64,000 nucleotides of DNA from assembly GCA_038207085.1 (NCBI GenBank), contig JBBRAE010000001.1, positions 192,001 to 256,000 of the forward strand, in the 5' to 3' direction. The notes under the pieces are model-generated. The model saw only the letters and a list, made by a program, of their open reading frames with translations. It was not told where the DNA came from and did not search any database. The stretch is from Armatimonadota bacterium. Lineage in GTDB: Bacteria > Armatimonadota > UBA5829 > DTLH01. The first letter of the stretch is position 1. Every line of letters begins with the position of its first letter. Below, piece by piece: positions 39,048 through 63,603 of this stretch. The position numbers and the translations under genes were made by a program.

Positions 39048-39128
39048 CTAACCCGCATTATTCACGCTACTCGTGAATAATGCTCTGTTAGCGAAAGTTT
39101 TATTCGCTTCACGAATAAAGCGGGCTAA
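39048..39128 (+). mobile_element. 81-bp CTAA-bounded double-hairpin miniature element, copy 1
   Basis: Near-identical to 58921-59001 and 63523-63603; loops ctact and cttca. Confidence 0.85.
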
Positions 39129-39144
39129 ACGATTGGAAGAACCT

Positions 39145-39903
39145 ATGCTAACCTCGACATTTGTTCACGCGCAGGGAATTGGAGCTACTACAGAGCAGCG
39201 GATTTGGCAGGCGGGTATTACCGACTGGCAGGCGTTTCTGGATCGGCCACAGGATGGTCTGCTTTCGGAGCGCCAGTATTCGGCGCTTGCGCCTGTGGTC
39301 GAGGAGTCGCAGAAGAAGTTCGACGCCGGAGACTTTCTCTATTTTGCGAAGCAGGTGCCCAACTGTGAGCATTGGCGAGCGTACGGTGAGCTTGGGGCTC
39401 GCGCAGCGTATGTTGATATAGAAACGACAGGCATGGGCATGGACTCGGCGATCACTGTGATCGGCCTATATGATGGAGTCAACACCAAAAGCTACATCAA
39501 AGGGTTCAATATCGAGGAGTTCGCTGCCGATATCCTGGAGTTTCCACTGATCGTAACCTACGCCGGGGCAACCTTCGACCTGCCGCACCTCCGTCATGCG
39601 TTTCCCGGGACGCCACTCAACCAGCTTCACGTCGACCTCTGCCCCACCCTCCGCAAGATCGGCTACAAAGGCGGACTGAAGTCTATCGAAGAACGGCTCG
39701 GACTGAACCGCGAGGACGGCATCAAAGGCCTCAGCGGCTGGGATGCAGTTCGGCTTTGGCACGAATGGGAGCGCGGACGCCAAAAGTCGCTAGACATACT
39801 CGTTGAGTATAACCGCGCCGACGTTGAAAACCTCAAATTCCTCGCAGAGTTCGCATACAAACAGCTCCGGACGCACATTTTGCCCGTCGGCCTCACTTTA
39901 TAG
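39145..39903 (+). CDS. RNase H-like (YprB/DEDD-type) exonuclease
   Basis: YVDIETTG, TYAGATFDLP, HVDL, GGLKSIE, YNRADV; the upstream ORF extension is the inserted element. Confidence 0.85.
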   Translation: MLTSTFVHAQGIGATTEQRIWQAGITDWQAFLDRPQDGLLSERQYSALAPVVEESQKKFDAGDFLYFAKQVPNCEHWRAYGELGARAAYVDIETTGMGMDSAITVIGLYDGVNTKSYIKGFNIEEFAADILEFPLIVTYAGATFDLPHLRHAFPGTPLNQLHVDLCPTLRKIGYKGGLKSIEERLGLNREDGIKGLSGWDAVRLWHEWERGRQKSLDILVEYNRADVENLKFLAEFAYKQLRTHILPVGLTL

Positions 39904-40014
39904 CCTCTTTCAATCCCCATCCTCCTACAGCATTAGGCCTGCTGGTTACCCGCCCCGCCGAAGGGGTATACTTAAAGTGGCCCGGCGTCATTGGTCACTA
40001 CCGGTTGCTCTTAT

Positions 40015-40040
40015 GTTTTGGGTAATAGGGCAGTGGGTAA
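40015..40040 (+). promoter_or_regulatory. SigB/SigF-like promoter GTTT-N16-GGGTAA
   Basis: Upstream of the DUF948-YtxH pair; related site at 40787-40813. Confidence 0.45.
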
Positions 40041-40090
40041 ACCAGCACACGACTGGGCGACGAACGTCTCTAACAAATGGAGGTGTCGAG

Positions 40091-40498
40091 ATGTCCGAGC
40101 AGTTGTCGCTTGCGATAACGGCGATCTGCATGCTGGTCATTACCCTGGCTATTATTACGGTCTCTATAGTAACCGTAATGCTGCTGCTTCGAGTCCGTAA
40201 GTCCGTATCCACGGTGACAAACCGAGCCCAGCCGCTTATAACACAGGCTACTGAGACGGTCAAAACCGCAAACGGCATAGCCCAGAACGTCAAGACCCAC
40301 GCGGATCGCATCATGGACCGGGCGGAGGACACTGTCGATAATGTCACCCGCAAGGTCAAAACCACTACGAACGTTATCCAGGATTCTATCAATCCATCCG
40401 TAATAACTGTGGCCAGTGTACTAACCGGTGTCTCACGAGGACTGGAAGTATGGAGCCAAGTGAGAAGAAGAGGAGGTAATGGTCATGCGAGGACTTAA
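40091..40498 (+). CDS. DUF948/YtxG-like membrane protein
   Basis: GGAGG RBS, N-terminal TM helix plus coiled coil, precedes YtxH-like gene. Confidence 0.65.
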   Translation: MSEQLSLAITAICMLVITLAIITVSIVTVMLLLRVRKSVSTVTNRAQPLITQATETVKTANGIAQNVKTHADRIMDRAEDTVDNVTRKVKTTTNVIQDSINPSVITVASVLTGVSRGLEVWSQVRRRGGNGHART

Positions 40499-40772
40499 CT
40501 TTGTGGTCGGCCTCACCGTCGGCGTGGCTGTGGGCGCGTTAGTCTCTGTGATGTTCGCTCCGAAATCCGGTATAGAAACCAAACAGAGTCTCCGCGAGAT
40601 AACCGAAGAAGCCCGTCGGCGTACAGAAGAGATAAAGAGCAGGGGTCGACGGTATGTAGAGACCGAACGAACACATATCCAGGAGGCCGTCGATGCCGGT
40701 CGGCAGGCGGCTGAAGAAAAGCGCAGACAACTCGAAACGCAACTACACGTCGAATCGCCCACTGTTGTGTAG
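40485..40772 (+). CDS. YtxH domain protein
   Basis: FVVGLTVGVAVGALVSVMFAPKSGIETK. Confidence 0.85.
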   Translation: MRGLNFVVGLTVGVAVGALVSVMFAPKSGIETKQSLREITEEARRRTEEIKSRGRRYVETERTHIQEAVDAGRQAAEEKRRQLETQLHVESPTVV

Positions 40773-40786
40773 CTGAGGTAGTTCGA

Positions 40787-40813
40787 GTTTCTAGTCTGCT
40801 TGTATTGGGGTAA
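40787..40813 (+). promoter_or_regulatory. SigB/SigF-like promoter GTTT-N17-GGGTAA
   Basis: Upstream of the KGG stress gene. Confidence 0.45.
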
Positions 40814-40893
40814 CATAATGGTGACTGAAAAGGCAGCTAACCAGTGCGTGCCGATTCATTGTATATGGCGGAAATATGATAGGGGGTGACCTC

Positions 40894-41226
40894 ATGGCCG
40901 AAGATAAACCCGGACCGGAACCAGGATCCGAAGGTGCACGAAAAATAGCTGAAGCCCATAGGGGCTCTCATGAGCATGACCGCGAAGGTGGTTTCGCTGC
41001 AAACCCGGAACTGGCCAAGGAAGCTGGTCGCAAAGGCGGCGAAGCCGTCAAGAAGAAATATGGGCCGTCGTTCTACCGACAGATCGGTAAGAAGGGCGGA
41101 GAAACCGTCAAACAGGAGCGTGGATCTGAGTTCTACGCTGAAATTGGCCGCCGGGGCGGAGAGATGCGGAGTTCCCGCATGAAGCAGCGCAAGGCGGAAG
41201 AAGAGAGTAAGGAAGGTCCGAAGTAG
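40894..41226 (+). CDS. KGG-repeat general stress protein (GsiB/YciG-like)
   Basis: Three repeats EAGRKGG / QIGKKGG / EIGRRGG. Confidence 0.9.
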   Translation: MAEDKPGPEPGSEGARKIAEAHRGSHEHDREGGFAANPELAKEAGRKGGEAVKKKYGPSFYRQIGKKGGETVKQERGSEFYAEIGRRGGEMRSSRMKQRKAEEESKEGPK

Positions 41227-41254
41227 TCACAAAAGTGGCTGGCTTCAACCTCAC

Positions 41255-41290
41255 AGGGCGCAGATTTCCAGAAATGGTTCTGCGCCCTTT
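41255..41290. terminator. Terminator hairpin between convergent genes
   Basis: agggcgcaga/tctgcgccct stem followed by ttt. Confidence 0.65.
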
Positions 41291-42545
41291 AGTTTTGTCG
41301 CTCGTTTCGCATCCCGACAATCTGCATCATCATTCCAAGAAGCATTAACACCATCGTTATACCAAACAGGTAGCCGATATTCCAGTGGTTTGACGCAAAC
41401 GTCTTCATCGCCCAAGCACCTGCAAACGGGGCCAGCGTCCCCCTAATCCCCAAGAGACACGAGAAGAGCGCCATGTAGGTGGAAATCCTACGCGGGTCGG
41501 CAAACCGCAGCACAGCGTTGAAGTAGGCAAGCTCAATCCCAGCCGCCGATATTCCAAGCGCCGCAGCCGATGGAAACAGCGCAACAATAGTCGGGTGCCC
41601 CAATGAGCCTGCGATAATATAGTTCAGCGGGATCATCATATTGATGAGGATGTTGATGATAATGATCTTCAATGGGTTTGAGGTATCTACACGTCGTCCC
41701 CAATAGAGATATGAAAACATCCAGAACACGTTAAATACGAGCGTAAGCACTGATACGTCTTTGGGGCCGAAATTGAGCTTATCCACTTGGAAGATCGGGA
41801 TAATCGGCTGGAGGAGGAGGTTCCCGCAGCCATAAGTAAACACCGAAAGCGCAAACCACAAAAAGAGCCTGTCCTGCCCGAGGATCTTGATCGCGTCTGC
41901 AAGAAACTCGTGGGTCTTCTTTTTGCCTTGGATCTCTTCTACCGTAGGTTTGGATACATTTATTGTTCTGAAAAACACTGTTGAGAGAATGCCAAACGCC
42001 GCAGCTATAGGAAACACAAACCGGTAGCCGTCGCCTGAGAGCATTCTTCCCGCGATCATCGCTGTAACGACGTTCGCAAGCGCGATCAGCACGCGCACGT
42101 ACCCCATCATCCGGCCGCGCAGCTTGTCGGGGTAGATGTCCTTCATAATCGAGGCGTAAGCAGGCGACGTAATCGTTACCAGGAACTGACTCGACGTGAC
42201 GATAGCCGCGTACCAGATAGGCGTGTGCACAAAGAGCATCAGAAAGAATATCGCGCGACCGATGATGCACGGCCACACGACGAAAGGCATTTTGGAGCGG
42301 CCTTCCATCGCGTTTGCCCAGAAGAGCGCGAACAGGTTTCCGATAAACGGCGCAGCGACCATCAGCCCGATCAGGGCCTCGCTCATATGAAGCTGCTTGC
42401 GCGCCACGACCAGCACAAACGGCATTATCCCGCCGATGTAAATGCCGCAGAAGAACCCCGCCCAAGCGTCCCTCGACCACGCGCCGCGAGTCTTCCCCGG
42501 CACTTCAAATGCCCGGTACACAGTCCTGCGAATACCAAGCTTCAC
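41289..42545 (-). CDS. MFS transporter (start uncertain; frame open to 42689)
   Basis: About 12 hydrophobic segments; YPDKLRGRMMG. Confidence 0.85.
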   Translation of the reverse strand: MKLGIRRTVYRAFEVPGKTRGAWSRDAWAGFFCGIYIGGIMPFVLVVARKQLHMSEALIGLMVAAPFIGNLFALFWANAMEGRSKMPFVVWPCIIGRAIFFLMLFVHTPIWYAAIVTSSQFLVTITSPAYASIMKDIYPDKLRGRMMGYVRVLIALANVVTAMIAGRMLSGDGYRFVFPIAAAFGILSTVFFRTINVSKPTVEEIQGKKKTHEFLADAIKILGQDRLFLWFALSVFTYGCGNLLLQPIIPIFQVDKLNFGPKDVSVLTLVFNVFWMFSYLYWGRRVDTSNPLKIIIINILINMMIPLNYIIAGSLGHPTIVALFPSAAALGISAAGIELAYFNAVLRFADPRRISTYMALFSCLLGIRGTLAPFAGAWAMKTFASNHWNIGYLFGITMVLMLLGMMMQIVGMRNERQN

Positions 42546-42710
42546 GCCGGTCTGCAGTCCCCTTGCTGGGATTGATCGCTGATTATCCTGCTGGCTCACG
42601 GACAAAAAACCCACCAAAACAAGGGCCCGCTGGCGTTTGCCAGTGAGCCCCATGAACTTCACATATACTGAATGACGTGACCACATCACAAGATATAGCC
42701 AGTCAGCTCG

Positions 42711-44291
42711 TTAGAACTGTACTTGTTTTGCGCTCTCGATGCCTTCGACGCCAAGGAGTTCGCCCATAACGTCGTCGGGTATCGTGCTGTCAACGGAAAG
42801 CACCATAATCGCGCGGCTGCCCTGAGACTTTCGCCCCACGTGCATTCCGGCGATGTTGATGCCATTGTTGCCAAGGATCGTGCCGACTTTGCCGATGATA
42901 CCGGGCTTGTCCGTGTGCGGAGCGACGAACAGATTGCCGTCCGGGACGACGTCTACGCGGTAGCCATCGATCTGAACGATGCGCACATCGTTCTTGCCAA
43001 GCACCGTGCCGCTCAGCTGCTTGTTGCCCTTATCGGTCTTTGCGTCAATGGAGAGAACCGATGTAAAGTCGCCGACACTGGCGCTCTTGCTCTCGGTCAC
43101 TCGAATGCCGCGTGCTTCGGCGATCACAGGAGCGTTTACGAAGTTGACTGTTTCGCTCAAGATCGGCCGCAGGATCCCTGTAAGCACTGCACGGGTGATG
43201 GGGCCGGTCTCCTGGCCTGCAACTTCGCCGCAGTAGGTGATCTCGATAGACTCGATGCCACCTTCGCTCGTCTGAGTCAGAAGCGACCCGAGCCTCTCAG
43301 CAAGCGTGAGGTACGGGCTGATCTGCTTCAGCACTTCGCTAGAAACTGCCGGCATATTGACTGCGGAGCGAGCGGGCTTGCCGCTGAAATACTCTACCAT
43401 CTGCTCGGCAACGTCGATCGCAACCTTGCTCTGGGCCTCTTCGGTCGAAGCGCCGAGGTGCGGAGTTGTGACGATATTGACGGCTCCCGGGAGCGGGTTA
43501 TCGGCGGCAATCGGTTCGGCTGAGTAGACATCCACAGCGGCTCCGGCGACCTTGCCGCTTGCAAGGGCCTGTGTGAGCGCCGCTTCACTGATGATACCGC
43601 CGCGCGCGACATTTATGATACGCACGCCGTCCTTCATCATCGAGAACTCTTTTTCGCCGATCAACCCTTCGGTTTCCTTGTTTCTGGGAAGATGAAGGGT
43701 GATGTAGTCACTGCGCTTCAGGAGCGTGTCGAAATCCACGGACTCGATTCCGAGCTTGTTTGCAACGTCGACCGAAAGGAACGGGTCGCAGGCAACAACT
43801 GACATCCCGAAAGCCTGCGCGCGCTTGGCGACCTCGCGTCCGATCTTGCCAAGACCGAGAATACCGAGGACCTTGTTATATACCTCAACCCCCACATACT
43901 TGTTTCGCTCCCACTCACCGTGCTTGACTGATGCGTCTGCTGCAGCGATGTTTCGGGACATCGCAAGAAGAAGCGCCATAGAAAGCTCAGCCGCGGCGAT
44001 AGTGTTACCCTCGGGCGAGTTGACGACGACTATGCCTTTTTGTGTGGCCATAGGCACGTCGATGTTGTCTACCCCCACCCCCGCTCTGCCGATGATCTTG
44101 AGTTTGTCGGCAACAGCGATTACATCGGCCGTAACCTTGGTCGCGCTTCGGACCACCAGTCCATCATACTCACCAATGCAGGCGATCAAGTCCTCTTTGG
44201 GCATACCAGTCTTGACGTCGACCTCGGCGACCTGTCTGAGGATATTTACACCCTCCTCCGAAATCTTGTCAGCTACCAAAACCTTAGGCAT
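42711..44291 (-). CDS. serA: D-3-phosphoglycerate dehydrogenase with ASB and ACT domains
   Basis: GRAGVGVDNID, NVARGG, TPHLGAST, DKPGIIG. Confidence 0.97.
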   Translation of the reverse strand: MPKVLVADKISEEGVNILRQVAEVDVKTGMPKEDLIACIGEYDGLVVRSATKVTADVIAVADKLKIIGRAGVGVDNIDVPMATQKGIVVVNSPEGNTIAAAELSMALLLAMSRNIAAADASVKHGEWERNKYVGVEVYNKVLGILGLGKIGREVAKRAQAFGMSVVACDPFLSVDVANKLGIESVDFDTLLKRSDYITLHLPRNKETEGLIGEKEFSMMKDGVRIINVARGGIISEAALTQALASGKVAGAAVDVYSAEPIAADNPLPGAVNIVTTPHLGASTEEAQSKVAIDVAEQMVEYFSGKPARSAVNMPAVSSEVLKQISPYLTLAERLGSLLTQTSEGGIESIEITYCGEVAGQETGPITRAVLTGILRPILSETVNFVNAPVIAEARGIRVTESKSASVGDFTSVLSIDAKTDKGNKQLSGTVLGKNDVRIVQIDGYRVDVVPDGNLFVAPHTDKPGIIGKVGTILGNNGINIAGMHVGRKSQGSRAIMVLSVDSTIPDDVMGELLGVEGIESAKQVQF

Positions 44292-44866
44292 TATATCCGT
44301 CTCCTCTCCATAGCAACTTTAGCATACAAGGGAGTTAGACAATATACCTCTCAAAACCTCTGTAATTGGCTCGAAGTTTGCACTATTCATATTTGGTGAC
44401 GTTCGCAGCTAATGACGAGTATGTTTTACACGATTGTTACATACTTGTTGTTACTGCGTTGTACATTACTGCTAATCTAGTAGTGGCGCGGTAGTTTGCT
44501 TTGATTTGCGTAGTGTCCAGAAGCGACTCCGACGTTACTTTTCAGTATCGAGGCAGCAATGGGGCTGCCCTGAGAACACTTGTGATAGCGTAACACAGTG
44601 ATCTCAATAGACCTCTCACCGGAGTGCGAAGATCCGGCTTAATATGCGGTTAAAGATTCAACACCGCTCTTCGCAGAGATCGATCACCGGCGCGCCGAGC
44701 GCTGTTGATCTAAATAGATCGGCAAATCTTAAGAATTTCCAAAAGACATGCAGGCATAGGATCGTTGGCTCTGTTACATGCAGCGATCCACCAATCCAAA
44801 GGAGATACGACGCACGGTGGCGGGCACGAAAGGCCGAGTCCACCGGCAAGAAGGGAGGCAGGGTTG

Positions 44867-45781
44867 ATGAGCAGCAAAGCTATAAATTTGGCGGAACGCG
44901 ATGAGATGATCGATTCCGAACCAGAAGCTGAGGAAACTCACACTGAAGCAGCAGTAACCGATTCTATGGATCTTTACCTCAATAAGATCGGGAAACGGGC
45001 ACTGCTTACACATCGCGAAGAGGTTGATCTCTCACGGAGATCAAGGGCTGGGGATGCCCACGCCAAACAAAGACTGGTGGAGTGCAACCTAAAGCTCGTA
45101 GTCAGCATCGCAAAGATGTATTCGAGCTCAGGCATTCCGCTTCCCGACCTGATCCAGGAAGGGAACATCGGACTTATCAAGGCAGTGGAAGCCTTCGACC
45201 CGGAACGCGGCTTCAGATTCAGCACCTACGCTGTTGCATGGATCAGACAGTCTATTACGCGGGCTATCGAGCGTCAGGGACGTACTATCAGAGTCCCGAG
45301 CTACGTGATCCAGACAATTCGCCGCCTCCACAGATTGGAAACTGACTTTATGGGGGAGTGTGGTAGGGAAGCCACACTAGAAGAAATCTCACAGCGGGCG
45401 TCCATTTCGTGCGAGCAAGTCGTGCGCCTGCGGGGAGCATGTGAAGTCCTGGTGTCTCTGGACGACACAGTCAAGGATGATACCACAACAGCGCTTCTTG
45501 AGCGACTTACAGATACCACAGCCGAAGACCCCGAAACTCGTGCCCTGCACAGGGAAAGCAACGAGATCATCGGCAAGCTGGTAGAAGGTCTGAGTCCTCA
45601 GGAGAAGCTAATTATCGAGAAGCGTTTTGGCCTGGGCGACGGTGCAACGTCTACGCTCCAGGAACTGGGTCAGCAACTCTGCATCACCCGTGAACGAGTG
45701 CGCCAGCTCGAAGCCCGAGCCATAAAGAAGCTGCGAATGGCCGCAGCGAGGAGTAGGCTGGACGGCTACTTCCTCATCTAG
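44867..45781 (+). CDS. RpoD/RpoS-family sigma factor lacking region 1.1
   Basis: [40 protein letters not shown]. Confidence 0.92.
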
Positions 45782-45802
45782 CAGAAAGGGAGGCTGGGGA
45801 GT

Positions 45803-46054
45803 ATGGAGACTACACTGGAATCAGCGTTGATTTCTCTTCAAGACACAGACGTAGTCTCTCGCCTCACAGACAGAGAACGGGAAATTCTGCGCCTCATATT
45901 CGACGGGAAGTGTTCGAATGAGGTCGCGTCGGTCCTGTGTGTGAGCAAGAGGACGGTGGATTTCCACCTCGCGCGCGCTTATGTAAAACTAGGGGTGTCT
46001 AACCGGTTTCAAGCGTTCAAGCGTGCTATAGAACTAGGTATTATCGAGAGTTGA
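45803..46054 (+). CDS. Stand-alone LuxR/GerE-type HTH protein
   Basis: LTDREREIL..G..EVASVLCVSKRTVDFHL..KLGV; no receiver domain. Confidence 0.9.
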   Translation: METTLESALISLQDTDVVSRLTDREREILRLIFDGKCSNEVASVLCVSKRTVDFHLARAYVKLGVSNRFQAFKRAIELGIIES

Positions 46055-46070
46055 GAGAATAAAGGGGAGT

Positions 46071-46135
46071 GTCTAAGGTGACGAGTGGTGAGCGAGGGGA
46101 CTCACAGTGTCTCACTCGTCACCAAGTTCTTAGAC
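46071..46135. other. Long imperfect stem-loop between convergent transcription units
   Basis: gtctaag/cttagac and ggtgacgagtg/cactcgtcacc stems. Confidence 0.55.
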
Positions 46136-46224
46136 GTCCTCAATAACCTATGGCGCGGTCAAACACGTTCAGCATCGCGCCGTCGCTCTCAAACGCGTCA
46201 AGATTCACCATCTTAAGCCCCATA

Positions 46225-47109
46225 TCACCCTCCGTGGCTGTCGGCAACTCGAAGCGCTGCCTTTGCGGCGGCGACATCAGCCGGCATCACCACTATCAAG
46301 TCTTCCCCAGCGCTGACGCTCTTGCCGATCGATTCAACCCGCACGGGTTGCGGAGCAAGCTCTGGTTCTACGAATGAGATCCCGCCGTTGTCAGAAAGCC
46401 TGGCAGCGAGCTGCAGCAGTTCATCGTCGGGGGATGGGCACACAAACACCAGGGGTTTGCTGACCGCCATGGCGGCGACCATCTCCACCGCTTCCACCTC
46501 TGCATCAGCCTCCCCCATCCTGCCGTCGTTTTCGATCACTTCGTCAAGGTAGACAGTAAGTGAATCTGCGCCCTGCGAGATCGCAAGCTCAGCGTCATCA
46601 AGCGACGATACGACGGCTGAAACTGTGATCACCCTTCCGTCAGATGTGAAAGTCGGCAGGTCGTCTGCGTCAAAGGTTATAGGGGCGCGAGAATCGGTCT
46701 CTGAATTGTCCTGGTAATCGATCACGCTGTAGATATCCGGGTCGATAATAACCCGCCCGGAGTCAGCGTCGACGATAACCATGCTTTCGGGGCCAACAGA
46801 GCTTACTAGACCAGCAACACCAGTCATACACGGGACTGAAAGCGGCTGGAGCGGTTCGTCGTCAGACTCACAAGCAATACCGATGATCCGACTGCCCGGA
46901 ATCATCACGTTCGACCCAATCGCGAGCACGTCACAGACTATGACCACCTCCTGCCACTCAGCCTCAGGGAGCCCGCTGCGCAGTGCCTTGATTCCGGTCA
47001 TCATCACGTTTTCAGTAATGCCCGCAAACCCACGGTCAGAATCCACTACAACACCGACCGCCATCGCCACTCCCGCGTGCCTGCTAACGCCGCCAAGTTC
47101 GTGCATCAT
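46225..47109 (-). CDS. Degenerate PTS Enzyme I/PEP-utiliser-like protein without the phospho-His
   Basis: GV..GVAMAV N-terminus, VIVDADSGRVIIDPD, TSDGRVITVSAVV..GAD resemble PtsI; the SH motif is replaced by ESDDEPLQ. Confidence 0.55.
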   Translation of the reverse strand: MMHELGGVSRHAGVAMAVGVVVDSDRGFAGITENVMMTGIKALRSGLPEAEWQEVVIVCDVLAIGSNVMIPGSRIIGIACESDDEPLQPLSVPCMTGVAGLVSSVGPESMVIVDADSGRVIIDPDIYSVIDYQDNSETDSRAPITFDADDLPTFTSDGRVITVSAVVSSLDDAELAISQGADSLTVYLDEVIENDGRMGEADAEVEAVEMVAAMAVSKPLVFVCPSPDDELLQLAARLSDNGGISFVEPELAPQPVRVESIGKSVSAGEDLIVVMPADVAAAKAALRVADSHGG

Positions 47110-47963
47110 TGCTTAGTCTCAGCAGGCTTGTCCTGCCCTGGCTTTTTCTCAGCAGGCTTGTCCTGCCCGGCTTTCTTCTCTGCAGGCTTGTCCTGCCCGG
47201 CTTTCTGCTCTGTAGGCTTGTCCTGCCCCAATTCTTCATCTAAGTCGAAGTTGAGCGTTGCGCTGGCCGTGCCTGACTCGATCCACTCGCCACCCTCTTT
47301 CAGCGACACCTTGATCTCGCCGGGGCTAGAGAAGGCCTGACCCTTTTCGTCAGTAACGCGCACCCCGCCCGAAAGCGTGACGAACTGAAGGCCCACATCA
47401 TATACTGCACGAGTACCGACAAGAGTTCGCCCTTTGGATGTGATTTTGAGGCCGCCTTCGGCCGTAGCAATTTTCTTCTTGTACAGATACTCAAGCTTGT
47501 CGCAGACAATGTTGACTGGGTCACGAAGCTTTGCCGCCACTGAGTCCGGGTTCTTGGTGCCAGCATCGGGCTTTGGGGAGCCCACAAGCTTCACGTTGCC
47601 TTCGACCACGTTCTTGCGATCGTTCAGGTAAGTTGTCGCCTTTTCACCCGTAATGACGTTCTGACCGTCGACGATCTTCAGGTGGCCGACAACAACAGCT
47701 GTCTTGCCCTTCTCGTCATAGTCGGCTTTGTCACCAGTAATAACGGTGTCGCCATGCTTGATAACGACGTTTCCAGTGATGCTGTATGAGCTCGTATCTC
47801 CGGCACTGCTCCACTTCCACTTGTCACCGTCAATGCTGACCGTCTCTTTGGCCTTCTTTGGCGGGGATGCTTTGGTTTCTGGAGCGCCCGTAGCCATCAC
47901 GATCGCAATAGAAGCGAGTATCGCAGCCGACGCGGCTGTCAGTAGTTTGTTTGGTATCCTCAT
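47106..47963 (-). CDS. LptA/OstA-like beta-jellyroll protein
   Basis: Signal peptide; repeated GNVVI..ITGDKA.Y strands. Confidence 0.8.
   Translation of the reverse strand: MRIPNKLLTAASAAILASIAIVMATGAPETKASPPKKAKETVSIDGDKWKWSSAGDTSSYSITGNVVIKHGDTVITGDKADYDEKGKTAVVVGHLKIVDGQNVITGEKATTYLNDRKNVVEGNVKLVGSPKPDAGTKNPDSVAAKLRDPVNIVCDKLEYLYKKKIATAEGGLKITSKGRTLVGTRAVYDVGLQFVTLSGGVRVTDEKGQAFSSPGEIKVSLKEGGEWIESGTASATLNFDLDEELGQDKPTEQKAGQDKPAEKKAGQDKPAEKKPGQDKPAETKQ
47118..47228. repeat. 30-bp tandem repeat (about 3.7 units) encoding GQDKPxExKx
   Basis: aggcttgtcctgccc recurs every 30 bp. Confidence 0.9.
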
Positions 47964-48577: not shown

Positions 48578-48649
48578 AGCCAGATGCGAAAACTCCCCCC
48601 GGCACATGTGACACCCAGGGGGAGGCTCTCATTTCTTAGACGTTCCCGA

Positions 48650-49093
48650 TCAGAACGGGATAATGGGAGGAGGCGGAGCGTTTTCCTTATTGACAACGTA
48701 TATGTTGCCAAGCGACCCACCACTGTTCAGCCCAGCAGGGTATGTGACGGATGCCGGATCCTGACTGGTTCCGTTTGCCCTGACCCACCATGTATACACA
48801 GCAGGGACGGAACTACTGAGATCAACGGAATAGGTGTTCACTCCAGGAGCGCCTGCCATACTGAAACTAATGTTCCCCTGATTGTTGCTTGTGCTAGTGT
48901 AGCTGCCGATGGTGACTCTGGCACCAGCCACACCGTTGCCGGAGTTAAGGTCGACAACTCGGCCTGAAAGACTGAAAGTCCCAGGAGGTACAGGAGGCGT
49001 GCCGCCTCCACCTCCACCACCACAACCCGATATAACGGCAGCAGTGGCGATCACGCAGGTGATCATCGATATGATACGAAATTTGTTACGCAC
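48650..49093 (-). CDS. Lipoprotein with carboxypeptidase-regulatory-like Ig domain
   Basis: Lipobox ISGC followed by poly-Gly; AAGGAG RBS before the GTG at 49093. Confidence 0.75.
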   Translation of the reverse strand: MRNKFRIISMITCVIATAAVISGCGGGGGGGTPPVPPGTFSLSGRVVDLNSGNGVAGARVTIGSYTSTSNNQGNISFSMAGAPGVNTYSVDLSSSVPAVYTWWVRANGTSQDPASVTYPAGLNSGGSLGNIYVVNKENAPPPPIIPF

Positions 49094-53348: not shown

Positions 53349-53376
53349 CCGGGAAAGTGAGAAAACACGAGTCGCA

Positions 53377-56094: not shown

Positions 56095-56128
56095 CAAACA
56101 CGTCATAACTGCAATTTGTGACTATACC

Positions 56129-56159
56129 GGCCCTGGACAGCTTTTGTTCAGGGCCATTT
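56129..56159 (+). terminator. Hairpin after the GH116 gene
   Basis: ggccctggaca/tgttcagggcc stem with weak T tail. Confidence 0.45.
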
Positions 56160-56286
56160 ATGTCTCTCGGGCACGTTCGGTGGCGCGTCTTCCGTAACTG
56201 TTAATGCAGAGGTTTATCATTGGGAGTAACTGTGGAACAAACTCTGCGTCTGATATAGTGTAACCAAACAACGAGAGGTACCTGAG

Positions 56287-57714
56287 ATAAAGACTCTGGC
56301 AATCATCATACTGATCGGCCTCGGCTGCGCGGCGTTCGCTGCTTCGCCGCGTTCTGAGTTCAGAGGAGCGTGGGTAACTGCGTGGAACTACGGGTTCCTA
56401 AGTCCCGCCGAAGCAGACGAAACCGTGCGACTCGCTAAAGAGGCGAACATCAACGCACTCTTTATCCAGGTGCGAAAGACCGGCGACGCCTATTACAAGT
56501 CCGCCTTTGAGGCTCGGGCGACCAATATTGCCGGTGACCCGGATTTTGACCCCCTTGCCTATATAATCCGTGCTGCGCACGCTCAGGGTATACAAGTCCA
56601 CGCCTGGATGAACACATTCAGGATCTGGGGCAAGACGACGCCTCCAGCCGACCCCAATCATATCGCAGTGCTCCATCCCGACTGGATAACGCGCACCGCC
56701 ACAGGTGACACTGGCGCAGGCGAAGGACTGTTTCTCGACCCTGGAGTTGCCGAAGTGCGGGACTATACGTTTAATGTCTTTATGGACGTAGTGCGCAACT
56801 ACGACATCGACGGCATTCACCTCGACTACGTTCGTTATCCCGGCGCAGAGTTTGGCTACGCTCCACCCGCCGTTCAGCATTTCAACCTTGAAAAAGGTCG
56901 CGAAGGCACGCCGGTAAATACAGACCCCGAGTGGATGCAGTGGCGGCGCGATCAGGTGACGGCGCTTGTGTCCAAAATCTATAAAGATGCGACTGCGCTC
57001 AAACCCAACATCATGGTATCAGTCGCTGCAGTGCCTTGGGGGGATTGTCAGAACAATTTCTGCGATACTCTGCCATTTCGCAAGGTGTATCAGGACTGGC
57101 GCGGTTGGCTTGCGCAGGGGGTGATCGATGCCTGCATCCCTATGAACTACCGCGACGAGAGTAATCCCAAGTCCGCCAAGCAATATAGAAACTGGCTTGA
57201 TGGCTTCAACCAGTGGAAGTATGACCGCCAAATCTATACAGGGTTGGACTTCAACAGAAGCCCTGAGATGGTTGTGCGTCAGATTGAAGCCGCAAGAAAG
57301 CGCGGAATCGCCGGAATGGTCGGCTTCTCGTTCAACCAGACGCCGGAGCGGACCAAGCTTGTTCAGGTTCTCAAGCAAAAGATATACAGCGAGTCTGCCG
57401 ATTTCCCTGAGATGACTTGGAAACTTGCCTGCATTCAAAGGCAGAGTCGCGACCTCTATCGGCGTGCAATCGACGCGGTCACTCTCGAAAACGATCTGGA
57501 CAAGGGGTTGGACCTGCTAACTCAAGCGGTCGAGATCGACCCCAAGTATATCGACGCGCACTTCAGGCTTGGCCGGATCTACTCAAAGAAGGAATTGTGG
57601 GCCGACGCGGTGAAGGAGTTCGATGAGGTCCTGCTGCTTAGTCCAAGTTATTTGGCTGCACGGACTGAACGAGACGCAGCCGCCAAACGCCTCGACACCG
57701 GCACTGCCAACTGA
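56287..57714 (+). CDS. GHL10 (YngK-like) glycosyl hydrolase with C-terminal TPRs; ATA start inferred
   Basis: EFRGAWV, FIQVR..GDAYY, FDPLAY, YDIDGIHLDYVRY; the signal peptide lies upstream of the called ORF. Confidence 0.85.
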   Translation: MKTLAIIILIGLGCAAFAASPRSEFRGAWVTAWNYGFLSPAEADETVRLAKEANINALFIQVRKTGDAYYKSAFEARATNIAGDPDFDPLAYIIRAAHAQGIQVHAWMNTFRIWGKTTPPADPNHIAVLHPDWITRTATGDTGAGEGLFLDPGVAEVRDYTFNVFMDVVRNYDIDGIHLDYVRYPGAEFGYAPPAVQHFNLEKGREGTPVNTDPEWMQWRRDQVTALVSKIYKDATALKPNIMVSVAAVPWGDCQNNFCDTLPFRKVYQDWRGWLAQGVIDACIPMNYRDESNPKSAKQYRNWLDGFNQWKYDRQIYTGLDFNRSPEMVVRQIEAARKRGIAGMVGFSFNQTPERTKLVQVLKQKIYSESADFPEMTWKLACIQRQSRDLYRRAIDAVTLENDLDKGLDLLTQAVEIDPKYIDAHFRLGRIYSKKELWADAVKEFDEVLLLSPSYLAARTERDAAAKRLDTGTAN

Positions 57715-57748
57715 GCCAGCAGCAAACGAATGGAATCGGAGTGACACC

Positions 57749-58924
57749 GTGCTTAGAACACTGATCGCATGCATACTGCTATCCTCCTCCATCGCTTGTG
57801 CGAAAGCCGACACGCTGCGTATCGGCCTTATCTCGCAATTTCGAGGGATCGACTCCGTCTCCGTCAAGTCTTCCGCTGGTCTATGCGTAACCTATTCCGG
57901 CTCAAAGCTCGTTACGTGCATCGATCCCGGGCGCGAGCTCAAAATCAGCCGGACATCCGACACGCTTGAGTTTTCAGAGTCCGACGGCGGGACCAATCAG
58001 GCTGACTTACTACACATATCGTCGGACACCCCCGGTGCTGTTATCACCGTGTCCTCCGGCAAGACCAAAGACAGCTTCCGAGGCGCTATCGAGATCACTC
58101 CCTCAGCCAAAGGCCTTCTATTGGTCAACCAAGTCGATCTTGAGGAATATATGCTAGGTGTTGTGGCATGCGAGATGCCTTCTGAGTTCGATGTTGAGGC
58201 GCTGAAGGCGCAGGCAGTCGCAGCAAGAACCTACGCGTGGGCCAATAGAAACAAGCACCGCAAAGAAGGGTTCGACCTCTGCGATTCCACCCACTGCCAA
58301 ATGTATAGCGGAGTAGACAGGGAGACCGAGCGCACGACCAAAGCCGTTCGAGACACCAAGGATCTAGTCGCACTTCATCACGGCAAATTGATATGTGCAC
58401 TCTACTCCGCGGACTGCGGCGGCATCACCGAATCGGGCGATAAGCCGTATCTCTGTTCTGTGTCTGACAAGCCCGACGACGACGGCCCGGACTACTGCGA
58501 TCGCTCCGGCCACGCGTGGACGCTCACTTGGACACTTTCTGAGTTAGAGGCACTGCTTGAGCCCAGGCTGCCGAAACTCCAGGGGCTGAAGAGCATCACT
58601 GTATCCAAGGCTGACGAGTGCGGTCGCGCGGTGGAGGTCAAGATTGAAGCAGATAAGGGTTCAGTCAGACTATCTGGACAGAAACTGCGCTCGGTCATCG
58701 GGGTGAATGTTCTGCTGAGCACCGCTTTCACCATCAAGAAAGATGGCGAGAAGGTCACGGTGGACGGCCGAGGCTACGGGCATGGCATAGGGTTATGCCA
58801 GTTCGGCGCAAACGGCCTCGCCAAGTCTGATCAGGGGTACTCCTTCGAACGGATACTAAAGCACTACTACCACGATATCGAGATCAAGCCACTCAGTTCA
58901 AGCCAACTTACAGACACTGACTAA
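57749..58924 (+). CDS. SpoIID/LytB domain protein
   Basis: LEEYMLGVVACEMP, EALKAQAVAARTY, CQMYSG, GYGHGIGLCQFGA, ILKHYY. Confidence 0.93.
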   Translation: MLRTLIACILLSSSIACAKADTLRIGLISQFRGIDSVSVKSSAGLCVTYSGSKLVTCIDPGRELKISRTSDTLEFSESDGGTNQADLLHISSDTPGAVITVSSGKTKDSFRGAIEITPSAKGLLLVNQVDLEEYMLGVVACEMPSEFDVEALKAQAVAARTYAWANRNKHRKEGFDLCDSTHCQMYSGVDRETERTTKAVRDTKDLVALHHGKLICALYSADCGGITESGDKPYLCSVSDKPDDDGPDYCDRSGHAWTLTWTLSELEALLEPRLPKLQGLKSITVSKADECGRAVEVKIEADKGSVRLSGQKLRSVIGVNVLLSTAFTIKKDGEKVTVDGRGYGHGIGLCQFGANGLAKSDQGYSFERILKHYYHDIEIKPLSSSQLTDTD

Positions 58925-59001
58925 CCCGCATTATTCACGAGTAGCGTGAATAATGCTTTGTTAGCGAACGCCTTATTCGCTTCACGAATAAAGCGGGCTA
59001 A
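58921..59001 (+). mobile_element. 81-bp CTAA-bounded double-hairpin miniature element, copy 2
   Basis: Loops agtag and cttca; the left CTAA contains the SpoIID stop codon. Confidence 0.85.
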
Positions 59002-59003
59002 GA

Positions 59004-59489
59004 CTATAAGTTCGCCGCTGGGTTGTCGCTCGTCTGGCTGCTCAGGAAGTCTTCAGCAAGGAGTAATGCCGCATAGTCATCATAGGGCTCGGTGGGGACC
59101 AGGAAACCCCTCGGGACGAGTCGTCTCCAGCCCCGTGGTGGGTTCTCTTTGAAGTAGCGCACACGGGCGCGCTGGGTGCTAAACCATTCGTCGACGATGT
59201 AGATGGGTATCGAGAGCGAGCTCAGCGTCTTTGCTGTGGCCTCGCCGCCGGTTCCGCCGCCTACGATGAGCGCCTCAGGCTCCATACGCGAGGAGAGGAG
59301 TCTTACTGTATCGCGAACGTCGCCAGTTGGTACAACGGTCTTTGCGATGACTCCCTCTGTTCGGGAAACCACCGCAACTCCACACTTCGCCCTACCTGGA
59401 TCAACTGCGATTACACGATCTATCAAACCCAAAGACTCCTCGTTCTTGCCCGAGAATAGGCGAGCTCTCCATCGTTCTTCCATGTTCAA
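59004..59489 (-). CDS. YqgF/RuvX-like RNase H-fold protein
   Basis: AVDPGRAKCGVA, VDEWFST, DDYAA. Confidence 0.85.
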   Translation of the reverse strand: MNMEERWRARLFSGKNEESLGLIDRVIAVDPGRAKCGVAVVSRTEGVIAKTVVPTGDVRDTVRLLSSRMEPEALIVGGGTGGEATAKTLSSLSIPIYIVDEWFSTQRARVRYFKENPPRGWRRLVPRGFLVPTEPYDDYAALLLAEDFLSSQTSDNPAANL

Positions 59490-60970
59490 CGCTCCGCTGT
59501 AACCATAGTTGAGATCGCGAAACCAATGTTGTCGAGATTGATGGGTCCCGCGACGTAGATGTCCTTTTCTGCAACGGCCTTCAGCTCCACCTGCTTACCC
59601 GCAGTGCGGATAGTCTCGACCAGATCGATAAGAAGATCGAGCTGCTTGTCGGAAATCGGCTCGACGGCCTTGTCCGGGTCGGACGTCGCTATCGGGATAA
59701 CTCCCTCGCGCGCGGCTGCCGCCCGAACGTTGTTGCGTAAGAAATCCATAACGGCAAGAAGGACGCGGCCTTCGGACTGTTTGCCGTCTACAATTCCCCG
59801 GGCAATGTTATCTCCACGCTGAAACGCGAGCCTGTTCCACCGCAGCTGAAGATCCACCAGCGCTGTTTCGTCCTTGAGCGTATTGCGGACAACAGTGACA
59901 ATAGCGACGACACCGTCCACCGGACCACTGCGGCCTTTCAAGTAGATCGTCTTAACGGCCTCCTCAATGCATGTATCTTCATCGTTGGAGACAATGTCGC
60001 GGCTGCTGTCAACAAAAACCAGGCGAATAGCCCGTTTGCTGGCGTCCGAGCCTGCATGAACCGCCTTTGCCTTGTCGCTCGCGCTTTGAAGAAGGTTTGT
60101 AAGCTGCTCACGGACCTCACCGGGCGGCAGATCGGCATCGATCACGCGCCGGCCGATTTCCGTGCCCTGAGCAATCACCATATCTGTTGCATACAGCTCG
60201 TTGCGTTCGGCCTCGTGCTTTATATCTTCCTGCTGTTTCTTGATGAGTTCTTTGTTGTACTCTATCGTCGACTGAGCGGTGAGGATATCTTTCTGCGCAA
60301 CCTCAAGCTCTCTGCTTTTCGCGTCAAGCTCCGCGACCTTGGTGTCAAGATCTTTCTGAATAACGTCGAGTCGACCGTTTCGCACCCTAAGCTCTGACTT
60401 GATACGTCGCAGGTCCGCCGAGCTTACCTGTAGGCTCTCTGAGACTTGCCGCAGACGGCCTTCAGTCAGTTTGCCTGTGCGCCGCAGGTCACTTAGTTCC
60501 GCTTGACGGATGTCTATCAGGCGCGCGAGGCCCCTCATCTGTAACTGAGCAAGATCGCGTGCTCGGAAAGCGTCCTGCGACTCTTTTCGGGCTCGTGAGA
60601 CCTGTACGGACTTCTCATTCACCTCACGGGTGAGCTTGGAACTCTGGTCGAGAAGCTGTAGGTTCAGCTTACGGAGAGTGTTGTTGCGCTCAAGGTTAGC
60701 TTCGTACTTTGACGCAAGAGCTTCGTTCTTCTCGGCGAGTTGCAGCCCCTGAGTGAACACGAGGCGCATCCGGGAGTCGATGGTCATCAGGGTGCCGAAG
60801 GTCAGGGCGGCGATCAGCATTCCCGTGACGGATGTGACCAGAATTGCCGTGTGCCTGGGCCGCATGCCGAAAAGCCTCAGTCGACGTTTTCCCATCCGCC
60901 GCCCGAGCAAATCGCCAAGATACGCGACCAATCCCGACACCAATACCAGCAGGATAATGGTATAGATCAA
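59486..60970 (-). CDS. DUF3084 coiled-coil membrane protein
   Basis: AYLGDLLGRRMGKRRLRLFGMRPRHTA. Confidence 0.85.
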   Translation of the reverse strand: MIYTIILLVLVSGLVAYLGDLLGRRMGKRRLRLFGMRPRHTAILVTSVTGMLIAALTFGTLMTIDSRMRLVFTQGLQLAEKNEALASKYEANLERNNTLRKLNLQLLDQSSKLTREVNEKSVQVSRARKESQDAFRARDLAQLQMRGLARLIDIRQAELSDLRRTGKLTEGRLRQVSESLQVSSADLRRIKSELRVRNGRLDVIQKDLDTKVAELDAKSRELEVAQKDILTAQSTIEYNKELIKKQQEDIKHEAERNELYATDMVIAQGTEIGRRVIDADLPPGEVREQLTNLLQSASDKAKAVHAGSDASKRAIRLVFVDSSRDIVSNDEDTCIEEAVKTIYLKGRSGPVDGVVAIVTVVRNTLKDETALVDLQLRWNRLAFQRGDNIARGIVDGKQSEGRVLLAVMDFLRNNVRAAAAREGVIPIATSDPDKAVEPISDKQLDLLIDLVETIRTAGKQVELKAVAEKDIYVAGPINLDNIGFAISTMVTAER

Positions 60971-61125
60971 CTAATCCCCATTCCTTCTTATGGATTTTCG
61001 GCAGATAGCTTTACGGTCAGACACAGAGTATTCGAACCGAAAATCTCTCTCGACTTTCGGATTGAAAACTGAGTGGATATACGTTAAGTCGTTGCCCGAA
61101 TGTCAATAGATGCCTGAATATCAAG

Positions 61126-62214
61126 CTACTTCGCCGCGCGCAGGAGCAAAATCACCCCTAGCGAGAGACCAAGCACATCAGCCACGAATGCGCCCACGAT
61201 GGGAGGAATGCTCCCCTGTATCGCAAGCGCCGTAGTGAAGTGCCAGACAAACCAATACATAAAGATGATCAGGACGCTGAACCCAACACCGACCGATGGG
61301 TTACCCCGCTGCCGCTGTATGGCAAGCGGAGCGGCGACAAACGCAAACACCAGCGCCGCAAAAGGTATCGCCAGCTTATTGTATAGATCAACTTTCATAT
61401 CCAAAAGTTCCTTGACTGGCACGCTGCCATCAAGCTGACCTATGAAGTGCTTTAACTCGCCGAAGCTCATCTCCTCCGGTTTTCGCTGCCTGCGAAGAAT
61501 ATCGTCCGGATTTTCGTGAAGTTCCACCTGCTCTGTATCAAGCCCGTTGAACGCGATCGTCACGGTGCTGCCGTCGGGCTGAAACTTACGCATGAGACCG
61601 TTAGAAAGCTTCCAGTCATAGCCCTTTTTCCACTGTGCATTCTCGGCCTGGAATATAACTGTCGGATTGATTCCGTTTCTCTGAGTCACGATCACTTCGT
61701 GCATCGTTCTCGTGGCAGCATCGAACCCGCCGCCAACATATATTATGGCCTGAGTGCCCTTGTCTATAAAGACAAAAGGCTTATCAGAAGAAAGCTCTTC
61801 TTTGAGAGCGCGGGCCTGAATCTCTTTTGAAAGCCGCGCGCTTCCCGGTACGACGTATTCGCTCATCCCAAACGCGAGCGCCGAGACGATCAGACCAAGA
61901 GCAATCACCGGAATAACAGCGCGATACAGGCTGATGCCACTCGCGTAAAGCGCAACGATCTCACTGTCCATCGACATCCTGCTAAAAGTAACCAAAACGG
62001 CCACGAGGCAAGACATCGGCAGCGTGAAGACGATCACCGACGGCATATAAAGCAGCACGAGTTGAATCGCCGTGAACGCATTCAAGCCCTGAAGCACGAG
62101 CTTCGTCAGGTCGAGCAAGTGCTGACCGGCGAAGAAGATCGACGTAAACGCAGCTACACCAAACAGAAACGGCCACAAAAGCGCTGAGCCGATGAAACGG
62201 TAGAGCAGTTTCAT
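61126..62214 (-). CDS. LptF/LptG permease
   Basis: RMSMDSEIVALYASGIS, PEEMS, KLAIP. Confidence 0.92.
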   Translation of the reverse strand: MKLLYRFIGSALLWPFLFGVAAFTSIFFAGQHLLDLTKLVLQGLNAFTAIQLVLLYMPSVIVFTLPMSCLVAVLVTFSRMSMDSEIVALYASGISLYRAVIPVIALGLIVSALAFGMSEYVVPGSARLSKEIQARALKEELSSDKPFVFIDKGTQAIIYVGGGFDAATRTMHEVIVTQRNGINPTVIFQAENAQWKKGYDWKLSNGLMRKFQPDGSTVTIAFNGLDTEQVELHENPDDILRRQRKPEEMSFGELKHFIGQLDGSVPVKELLDMKVDLYNKLAIPFAALVFAFVAAPLAIQRQRGNPSVGVGFSVLIIFMYWFVWHFTTALAIQGSIPPIVGAFVADVLGLSLGVILLLRAAK

Positions 62215-62221
62215 CAGTTCT

Positions 62222-62944
62222 TCACATCTCAAACCGGTCGCCGAGGTAGTATTTCCTCGCGATCGGATCGTTGGGCAGGTCAGCCGCAGGGCCAGCCGTA
62301 GCAATCTTGCCTTCAGATATGATGTAAGCGCGATCTGTAATGCTGAGTGTCTCCCGCACGTTGTGGTCGGTTATGATAATACCTATATTCTTCTGTTCGC
62401 GAAGCGCATTGATTGTGGTCTGGATGTCGTGAATCGCAATCGGGTCGACGCCGGTGAATGGCTCGTCGAGCAGGATGAACGCGGGGTCGGTCGCAAGCGC
62501 CCGGGCGATCTCCGTCCGTCGCCTCTCACCGCCTGACAGCACCTGTCCACGCTCGTTGCGCAGGTGCTTCAGCCCCAGTTCGTCCATGAGCTGATCCAGT
62601 TTACGCATTCTTTCCTTGCGCCCTACCCCAGCCATTTCAAGCACGAGGAGGACGTTCTCAGCCACAGTGAGCTTTCGGAAGACCGATGGCTCCTGCGCGA
62701 GATACCCGATGCCGAGCCTTGCGCGCGCGTACATCGGACAACGCGTGATGTCCTGATCGTCTAGATAGACGCTGCCGCCGTTGGGGTGAACGAGACCGAC
62801 GACCATATAGAACGTGGTCGTCTTGCCGGCCCCGTTTGGCCCGAGGAGACCTACGATCTCCCCCTGCCCCACATCAATACTCACGCCGTTCACGACTCGC
62901 CGTCCCCGGTATACTTTTGCGAGATTCTCTGTCCTGATCCGCAC
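62222..62944 (-). CDS. lptB: LPS export ABC transporter ATPase
   Basis: [48 protein letters not shown]. Confidence 0.96.
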
Positions 62945-63514
62945 TTATTTCTTCTCTTCCGGTGTCTTTGAAGCAGATTCCTGCGGCTTCTTCGGAGTAA
63001 ACTCCAGCCGACTCTTCTCAGGAGTGCTCTCAATACGTATTCTCGGCTCGTCCGGGCCAAGTTTCGAGTTCAGGCTGATAATCGCCCGGTCCCCGACCAC
63101 GGTTGCAGGCCCGACGAACAGGTCCGGGTCGGTGCTTGTGATATGAACCGAGCCGGAAAGCACCGCTTCCTGGGCCTTAGCGTAGTCAATGAGCGCATTA
63201 TCGGCGGTCGCCGTAGTTACCTTGGTCGGCTCCGTCGACGCTTTCAGCCATACCCCGCCGGTTAGTTTGGCGGTCTGGTAGCTGCCTTTAGCGTCCTTTG
63301 TGACAACTACCCGGTCGGCCTTTGCTGCAAACGACCCGTCCTTGGCGGTTATGCGCACCTTGGACTCGGGGCTTCCGCTCAACGTGTAAGACTTATCGGT
63401 CACGGTGAGCATAGCGAAGCCTTCAATCGTCACCTTGTCAAGCTGCAGGTTCTGAGCCGCGCACGGCACTGCCAACGCGACTACCAGGGCGGCGATAACG
63501 GCGATTCGTTTCAT
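62945..63514 (-). CDS. LptA-like periplasmic protein
   Basis: Signal peptide, beta-jellyroll pattern, lies between lptC-like and lptB. Confidence 0.7.
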   Translation of the reverse strand: MKRIAVIAALVVALAVPCAAQNLQLDKVTIEGFAMLTVTDKSYTLSGSPESKVRITAKDGSFAAKADRVVVTKDAKGSYQTAKLTGGVWLKASTEPTKVTTATADNALIDYAKAQEAVLSGSVHITSTDPDLFVGPATVVGDRAIISLNSKLGPDEPRIRIESTPEKSRLEFTPKKPQESASKTPEEKK

Positions 63515-63522
63515 GTGTTCTC

Positions 63523-63603
63523 CTAACCCGCGTTATTCACGAGTAGCGTGAATAATGCTCTGTTAGCGAAAGCTTTATTCGTGAAGCGAATAAAGCGAGC
63601 TAA
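63523..63603 (+). mobile_element. 81-bp CTAA-bounded double-hairpin miniature element, copy 3
   Basis: Loops agtag and tgaag; the right CTAA contains the stop codon of the lptC-like gene. Confidence 0.85.

Follow-up and report, generated by a model that had tools for sequence, protein, structure and literature searches.

How can the two hairpin loops of a small chromosomal repeat come to be inverted, each independently of the other? This question is raised by an 81-bp element that occurs in three copies in a 64-kb stretch of contig JBBRAE010000001.1 from an uncultured Armatimonadota bacterium (64,000 nucleotides, the whole of which is referred to as the window). Every copy lies in the + orientation, is bounded by CTAA on both sides and contains two hairpins, A and B, whose 5-nt loops are found in two alternative states. 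The three-copy loop-inversion observation is real and lies far beyond chance. The element is best read as a dispersed repeat of the kind represented by MITEs (miniature inverted-repeat transposable elements) and REPINs, which would have inserted at CTAA sites and whose loops would have been flipped by template switching; a probability of roughly 0.6 is assigned to this joint reading. The coordinates reported for the three copies in the initial annotation of this DNA were confirmed, and the components of the copies are as follows.

39048–39128, + strand: copy 1, isomer with loop A CTACT and loop B CTTCA
39048–39051 and 39125–39128: CTAA ends of copy 1
39055–39083: hairpin A of copy 1, loop at 39067–39071, 12-bp stem perfect
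39084–39096: spacer of copy 1, with GTTAGC at 39087–39092
39097–39121: hairpin B of copy 1, loop at 39107–39111, one mismatch in the stem
58921–59001, + strand: copy 2, isomer with loop A AGTAG and loop B CTTCA
58928–58956: hairpin A of copy 2, loop at 58940–58944, stem perfect
58970–58994: hairpin B of copy 2, loop at 58980–58984, one mismatch
63523–63603, + strand: copy 3, isomer with loop A AGTAG and loop B TGAAG
63530–63558: hairpin A of copy 3, loop at 63542–63546, one mismatch
63572–63596: hairpin B of copy 3, loop at 63582–63586, 10-bp stem perfect

The element consists of 73 bp between the CTAA tetranucleotides, which are invariant in all three copies. Hairpin A begins 3 nt past the left CTAA, hairpin B stops 3 nt short of the right CTAA, and an asymmetric spacer of 13 nt separates the two. 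Comparison by script established, as had been claimed, that the variants of loop A and those of loop B are exact reverse complements. The chance that a random 5-mer equals a given reverse complement is 1/1024, and the identity is seen at both loops. Three of the four possible A/B loop combinations are present, also as annotated. The bases around hairpin A (CCC on one side, TCT or TTT on the other) and those around hairpin B (GAAA or GAAC on one side, GGG or GAG on the other) are asymmetric and keep their orientation in all three copies, which limits the inverted segment to the hairpin. The earlier proposal that each hairpin was inverted on its own, with no inversion of the element as a whole, is borne out in 3/3 copies. 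The description of the stems, in contrast, holds only in part: the 12-bp stem of hairpin A is free of mismatches in copies 1 and 2 but has one in copy 3, and the 10-bp stem of hairpin B is perfect in copy 3 and has one mismatch each in copies 1 and 2, so that three of the six hairpins have perfect stems and the other three a single mismatch.

Repeat finding places the three copies in one family, with identities to copy 1 of 89% and 83%. Outside the loops, 6 of 71 columns are variable, each of them a singleton (one in copy 1, three in copy 2 and two in copy 3). Patterns for hairpin A and for hairpin B, with up to three mismatches allowed, each matched only the three loci, and 0/100 shuffles were matched. 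A search with an nhmmer profile of the three copies detected no additional copy or half copy in the 64 kb, the remaining hits being palindromic self-matches of the three loci or having E > 5. Only one other perfect hairpin with a stem of at least 9 bp and a loop of 3–8 nt occurs in the window. Both strands of the element, as DNA or as RNA, fold far better than shuffled sequences (z −5.1 to −7.1), and 0/200 shuffles fold as well in each of the 12 folds of the three copies.

The window was taken from a draft or metagenome-type contig, and repeats below the assembler k-mer or read length can be mis-threaded between copies. Loop variants at palindromes might accordingly be suspected of being assembly or sequencing artefacts, an explanation that is scarcely credible in the present case. 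Inverting a 5-nt loop within a 12-bp stem should need a k of about 17 or less, and longer k-mers should fix the orientation of the loop through the asymmetric flanks of the hairpins. Mis-threading would swap states between copies and could not create them, which implies that both states of both loops were in the sample. Moreover, each copy has private point differences.

The flips would be accounted for in a simple manner by template switching at inverted repeats. During replication, the nascent strand would switch to the complementary arm of the hairpin, copy the 5-nt loop from the wrong strand and switch back; in an equivalent route, the two arms of the hairpin would recombine. Either event would invert the 5-nt spacer and leave arms and flanks unchanged. 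Independent behavior of the two loops is expected, because each hairpin is its own inverted repeat. The literature contains several precedents. In yeast, spacer inversions were found only at arms longer than 9 bp and involved spacers of 2–5 bp; 9/10 of them occurred on already perfect repeats, and they were recurrent in parallel and reversible (PMC8604942). In rRNA genes, 69 loop-only inversions were reported at perfectly paired hairpins, bacterial examples included (PMC8794818). Hairpin-loop inversions in chloroplast DNA are common enough to cause homoplasy among close species (PMC6005162, citing Kelchner & Wendel 1996), and E. coli provides documented cases of template switching at inverted repeats (PMC5941160). 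The 81-bp element agrees with the published spacer inversions in each feature tested, namely the perfect or near-perfect arms (12 and 10 bp, within a shared range of 10–12 bp), the exact reverse complementarity of a 5-nt spacer and the unchanged arms and uninverted flanks, and it shares with them the independence of each repeat and the single-step appearance of the events (PMC8604942, PMC8794818, PMC6005162). A difference is that the published cases compare strains or species, whereas the alternative states are found here on different copies of a dispersed repeat.

A starting point for the flips is suggested by copy 2. Its states (AGTAG, CTTCA) are the majority states at both loops, and it is the most dyad-symmetric copy: the alignment of the element with its own reverse complement scores 82 in copy 2 and 64 in copies 1 and 3. 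On both grounds, copy 2 is likely to represent the ancestral state, from which loop A would have flipped once in copy 1 and loop B once in copy 3. In terms of crude rates, six hairpins carry two flips and 213 site-copies carry six substitutions. Flips thus exceed substitutions per site by a factor of only about 12, a modest rate that calls for no dedicated enzyme. The loop isomers would then be no part of the propagation mechanism.

The loop states might also have been exchanged between copies. As each hairpin is palindromic, an oppositely oriented copy can donate a reversed loop, either by ectopic gene conversion or by a cross-copy template switch. The stems are identical between copies over 10–12 bp on each side of the loop, which would provide microhomology, and intermolecular switching has been proposed for spacer inversion (PMC8604942). 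With three copies, the outcome is indistinguishable from that of switching in place. However, all three copies share the same orientation, with no opposite donor in the 64 kb, and no other copy is ever as close as the partner arm of the hairpin concerned. Exchange between copies is consequently regarded as quite unlikely.

The initial annotation had connected the isomers with propagation through hairpin nicking or resolution and had drawn attention to rolling-hairpin replication. In parvoviruses, including adeno-associated virus, flip and flop are reverse-complement isomers within a hairpin and are independent at the two hairpins. These hairpins are the ends of a linear single-stranded DNA (ssDNA) genome, and they flip in each replication round via Rep nicking at a terminal resolution site. 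Rolling-hairpin flip/flop needs the ends of a linear replicon; in contrast, the hairpins of the 81-bp element are internal to a bacterial chromosome, where they lie between ileS, spoIID-like and lptC/lptA-like genes. No HUH, transposase, recombinase or Rep-like gene was recognized among the 51 non-overlapping open reading frames (ORFs) of at least 100 aa in the window: none was present among the 39 ORFs with a Pfam match at E ≤ 1e-5, and a search of the remaining 12 at E ≤ 1 gave no mobility gene, the best result being a sub-threshold RuvX/YqgF match. The suggested search for copies beside a Y1/RAYT HUH or recombinase gene was thus negative in the 64-kb window, and the proposed nicking or resolution mechanism finds no support there. 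Inversion of a loop is a generic result of template switching (PMC8604942, PMC8794818, PMC6005162), and nicking or resolution need not be invoked for it. It was also inaccurate to state that HUH processing of hairpins is not recognized from bacterial repetitive extragenic palindromic (REP) sequences, since TnpA(REP)/RAYT does exactly that (PMC6006769).

The RuvX/YqgF (Holliday-junction-resolvase-like) match, with an E value of 3e-5 and 24.8 bits where the cut-off is 29.2, belongs to the ORF at 59004–59489 on the − strand, which ends 2 nt from copy 2. This ORF was considered as a link to a resolvase and rejected: the match is below the Pfam cut-off, NCBIfam gave no hit and the family is a common housekeeping one. 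Its nearness to copy 2 is probably due to chance. A switch operated by a site-specific invertase was rejected as well, given that no recombinase is found among the neighboring ORFs; a 5-nt segment between 12-bp arms is also far below the size of known invertible segments.

The anatomy of the element is informative on how it may have spread. Inside the CTAAs, the outermost 12 nt of one end agree with the inverted 12 nt of the other at 11/12 positions in copies 1 and 2 and at 10/12 in copy 3. Each end folds back on an internal inverted copy of itself, which gives rise to two related hairpins, and the whole element can be described as four alternating copies of one 10–12-nt word. Hairpins A and B are mutually mirrored and form a doublet of two inverted units, most clearly in copy 2. 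In addition, each CTAA, taken together with one further base, has its complement in the GTTAGC of the spacer, and in 8/12 minimum-energy folds this motif is paired to the left or the right CTAA so as to extend hairpin A or hairpin B.

Insertion at CTAA sites located at gene boundaries is the most likely route by which the element spread. As the agent, a cut-and-paste (DDE-type) transposase that duplicates 4 bp and is encoded outside the window would be slightly favored, in view of terminal inverted repeats abutted by a 4-bp direct repeat, the small size and the lack of coding capacity. Deletion of the element together with one CTAA would leave compact, normal-looking junctions at all three loci, and the present arrangement is therefore what insertion at a CTAA site would produce. 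Classical DDE-derived bacterial MITEs are likewise shorter than 100 bp, non-coding, intergenic and dispersed, with terminal inverted repeats abutted by a direct repeat (PMC3184786, PMC10969869). Unlike these, the 81-bp element has the same 4-bp direct repeat in every copy and a fixed orientation, and each of its terminal repeats is half of a hairpin. No parent insertion sequence is known for the element, and no transposase lies within the 64 kb. The E. coli insertion sequence IS5 targets YTAR with a 4-bp duplication. IS5 was rejected as a parent, as the ends of IS5A (E. coli K-12) performed no better than shuffles, of which 71/500 and 146/500 scored as well.

Several points weigh against the reading of the element as a cut-and-paste repeat with loops flipped by template switching. 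The CTAA is fixed in sequence and orientation in 3/3 copies and is hence inseparable from the element; a direct repeat that is identical throughout is not distinguishable from element sequence or from the target of an HUH-type enzyme. A symmetric cut-and-paste enzyme should generate CTAA and TTAG flanks equally, and three alike have a chance of approximately 0.25. The simple MITE view does not explain the pairing of GTTAGC with the outer CTAA pentamers. Mobility is putative, as no empty site, parent insertion sequence or second carrier genome was obtained. Stems are perfect in 2/2 hairpins in the minority state and in 1/4 hairpins in the majority state, a trend that fits homogenization of the arms during the switch and is not significant (Fisher p = 0.2). 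Finally, there are only three copies, and their singleton differences give a star tree that is uninformative on recurrence, ancestry and lineage independence. The three copies amount to two one-off inversions on this star tree, by which recurrent flipping is neither shown nor excluded.

The fixed CTAA and the complementary GTTAGC can alternatively be read as traces of an HUH Y1 transposase of the IS200/IS605 TnpA or RAYT type. Such an enzyme would bind the two subterminal hairpins and, guided by the internal TTAG, move the element as ssDNA to a position 3′ of a CTAA target; the flips would arise from hairpin processing or be incidental. The subterminal hairpins of 25–29 nt at both ends are in or near the range of 20–25 nt described for IS200/IS605 elements, in which the same tetranucleotide also flanks the left end and closes the right end (PMC6006769). 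CTAA does so here in one orientation in 3/3 copies, and the internal GTTAGC is complementary to both CTAAs. GC skew is mostly negative in the region of the copies, and one shared chromosomal orientation in such a region is what strand-specific insertion predicts, although three like orientations also have a chance of 0.25. The guide tetranucleotides, however, are not in the canonical position, and no TnpA is located nearby. With no more than 3 nt (CCC) between the left CTAA and hairpin A, a distinct 4-nt guide could not be accommodated just 5′ of the hairpin foot; the tetranucleotides 5′ of the feet (ACCC; GAAA or GAAC) are related neither to each other nor to CTAA; and the TTAG is 5 nt away from the foot of hairpin B, unlike the guides at hairpin feet that are described in PMC6006769. 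Furthermore, no GTAG or GTGG occurs 0–2 nt 5′ of either hairpin on either strand, and no Y1/HUH gene is present among the 51 ORFs. The ends of the 81-bp element form a terminal inverted repeat, and IS200/IS605 elements are not known to have such repeats. Nothing known in the HUH pathway inverts a loop. Movement by an HUH enzyme is thus judged unlikely. The further notion that a hairpin-specific ssDNA enzyme (HUH or another nuclease), encoded elsewhere, reads the CTAA via the internal TTAG and flips the loops in its own cycle is highly improbable. If it were true, the element would be a chromosomal bacterial counterpart of the viral flip/flop hairpins, and the four isomers would be expected at similar frequency, with single loci heterogeneous in reads.

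REPs and REPINs offer a further comparison. In the REPINs of Pseudomonas fluorescens SBW25, likewise, only the central unpaired bases mark the orientation of a palindrome, and a single genome contains both a TT-AA and an AA-TT configuration; in contrast to the independent flips of the 81-bp element, both palindromes change together in SBW25, via a different choice of element boundary (PMC3337134). REPs are described as G+C-rich, with GTAG or GTGG at the 5′ foot and a link to a RAYT gene (PMC6006769, PMC3337134), whereas the 81-bp element has A+T-rich stems, CTAA flanks, GTAG only inside loop A and no RAYT gene in the window. The bases 5′ of its feet (CCC and GAAA/GAAC on the + strand; CCC/CTC and CAGA/CAAA on the − strand) do not carry the REP signature. 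Loop A holds CTAC/GTAG, the tetranucleotide that marks REP feet, here in the loop and not at the foot. By our own estimate, CTAC or GTAG occurs in a 5-mer with a chance of about 1.6%, and its presence is treated as a coincidence. An alternative central pairing that would place this GTAG at a foot was rejected on inspection by eye, as it is broken by a bulge and a mismatch.

A second structured intergenic element, unrelated to the 81-bp element, is present at 23792–23957, where it separates a VanW/G5 gene from a DUF218 gene. Within 160 bp there are three exact occurrences of an 11-nt word that contains GTAG and then G+C-rich sequence, one on the + strand and two on the − strand, and 0/100 shuffles give five matches to this word at up to one mismatch. 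Two small G+C-rich hairpins are nested between long inverted arms, with GAA as the 3-nt loop of one and its reverse complement TTC as that of the other (fold z −4.9). Compared with the 81-bp element, this locus more closely resembles a canonical GTAG-type REP cluster, and a RAYT may accordingly be encoded elsewhere in the genome.

The window is an ordinary bacterial chromosome segment of 55% G+C, the genes of which include ileS, a glnN-type glutamine synthetase gene, serA, gnd, sigma factor genes, lptC/lptA/lptF-G and a spoIID-like gene. All three copies sit exactly at the boundaries of housekeeping genes, as listed below.

Copy 1: ileS at 36066–38846 (− strand), divergent from a PF13482 RNase_H_2 gene at 39145–39903 (+ strand)
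Copy 2: convergent SpoIID/LytB-like gene at 57623–58924 (+ strand) and ORF at 59004–59489 (− strand)
Copy 3: − strand pair of an LptC-like ORF at 63600–63989 and an LptA-like ORF at 62945–63514

A promoter-like site (39005–39033, + strand; a consensus match only) is found just upstream of copy 1, which would place this copy in the 5′ leader of the PF13482 gene. The left CTAA of copy 2 contains the TAA stop of the SpoIID/LytB-like gene. At copy 3, the TAG stop of the LptC-like ORF is the reverse complement of the right CTAA, and the LptA-like ORF starts 8 nt beyond the left CTAA, which is overlapped by its AGGAG-type ribosome-binding site. Relative to transcription, copy 1 has the sense orientation in a 5′ leader, copy 2 is flanked by convergent genes and copy 3 lies antisense in a − strand pair.

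Positions of this kind, together with the very stable folds of both strands, raise the possibility of a structured RNA or DNA signal selected by the host, such as an mRNA stabilizer, an attenuator or a protein-binding site, for which the orientation of the loops would be irrelevant or act as a switch. Hairpin A of copy 2 was flagged as terminator-like and lies 3′ of the spoIID-like gene, and REP elements are described as affecting mRNA stability and termination (PMC6006769). On the other hand, the orientation relative to transcription differs among the copies, which argues against a conserved RNA function. A T-rich tail follows only 1/6 hairpins, the neighboring genes are unrelated to one another, and the precise CTAA-to-CTAA boundaries look like those of an insertion. 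No Rfam family was matched at the gathering threshold across the whole window, and the scan around copy 2 gave only two chance-level microRNA hits (E 0.11 and 0.53). A host-selected signal is therefore considered very unlikely.

As for coding capacity, stops read by eye in all three + strand frames indicate that the element is non-coding. One − strand frame is open through the element in all copies over 26 codons (39051–39128, 58924–59001 and 63526–63603) with the TAG of the outer TTAG as its stop. If a gene were to run into the element in this frame, its product would acquire 26 extra C-terminal residues, the identity of which would vary with the loop states. A 43-column profile of this frame, which included natural upstream in-frame residues, detected no protein among 5.8 billion at E ≤ 10; the search covered longer proteins (322 candidates) and proteins of nearly the same length (one candidate) and constitutes weak negative evidence.

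The element was also sought beyond the window. A core pattern of 18 specified bases that fits all three copies matched seven loci in the GTDB representative genomes, in unrelated taxa and none with the element; by our own estimate, about 17 chance hits are expected in this collection. Copy 1 with its flanks gave no match to plasmid and phage collections by BLASTN in a distant mode. The lineage is poorly sampled. Of eight proteins of the window that were looked up, five, including those of gnd, glnN and serA, are present in a collection of about 15 billion sequences, each without a second member at 90% identity and all on one contig of 273,626 bp; the other three had no match with the start codons used. 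The best relatives of the isoleucyl-tRNA synthetase (IleRS) show identities of 100% (a short Logan contig of 5.4 kb), 84% (a JGI contig of 2.8 kb), 75% and at most 69% (named metagenome-assembled genomes of Armatimonadota). HIP1-type repeats, and with them a cyanobacterial origin, were rejected, since only three HIP1 octamers occur in the 64 kb. In the open-access literature, no loop-flipped isomers were found to be described within any bacterial MITE or REP family, and nothing was found on Armatimonadota repeats; the terms flip, loop, inversion and both orientations are absent from PMC3116915.

Several further features of the window were observed. The stretch between a promoter-like site (38937–38908) and the ileS start (38846) contains a perfect 11-bp hairpin at 38863–38889 (− strand), whose descending arm terminates in a run of T. 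It looks like a leader terminator or attenuator; neither a T-box nor another Rfam family was detected there in the whole-window scan. A 30-bp tandem repeat (3.7 copies, 93% matches) at 47117–47228 is located at the 3′ end of an OstA/LptA-like ORF (47106–47963, − strand), whose protein would end in 10-residue repeats. An ORF of 720 aa at 32091–34253 (− strand) contains Eco57I-type methylase, N6_Mtase and TaqI-like specificity domains and probably encodes a type IIG or IIL restriction-modification protein.

Taken as it stands, the 81-bp element represents a small repeat family that is new but of a familiar kind and displays a mutational process already described, and it comes from a phylum with few studied genomes. 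It would be of larger significance only if frequent, ongoing flipping were tied to a dedicated enzyme, and no evidence here points in that direction. If the reading by CTAA insertion and template switching holds, the three copies would provide a clean natural example of template-switch loop inversion on the copies of a bacterial repeat. In that case, alignments and trees of such repeats should score a loop flip as one event instead of five substitutions, and loop states would be poor markers of lineage.

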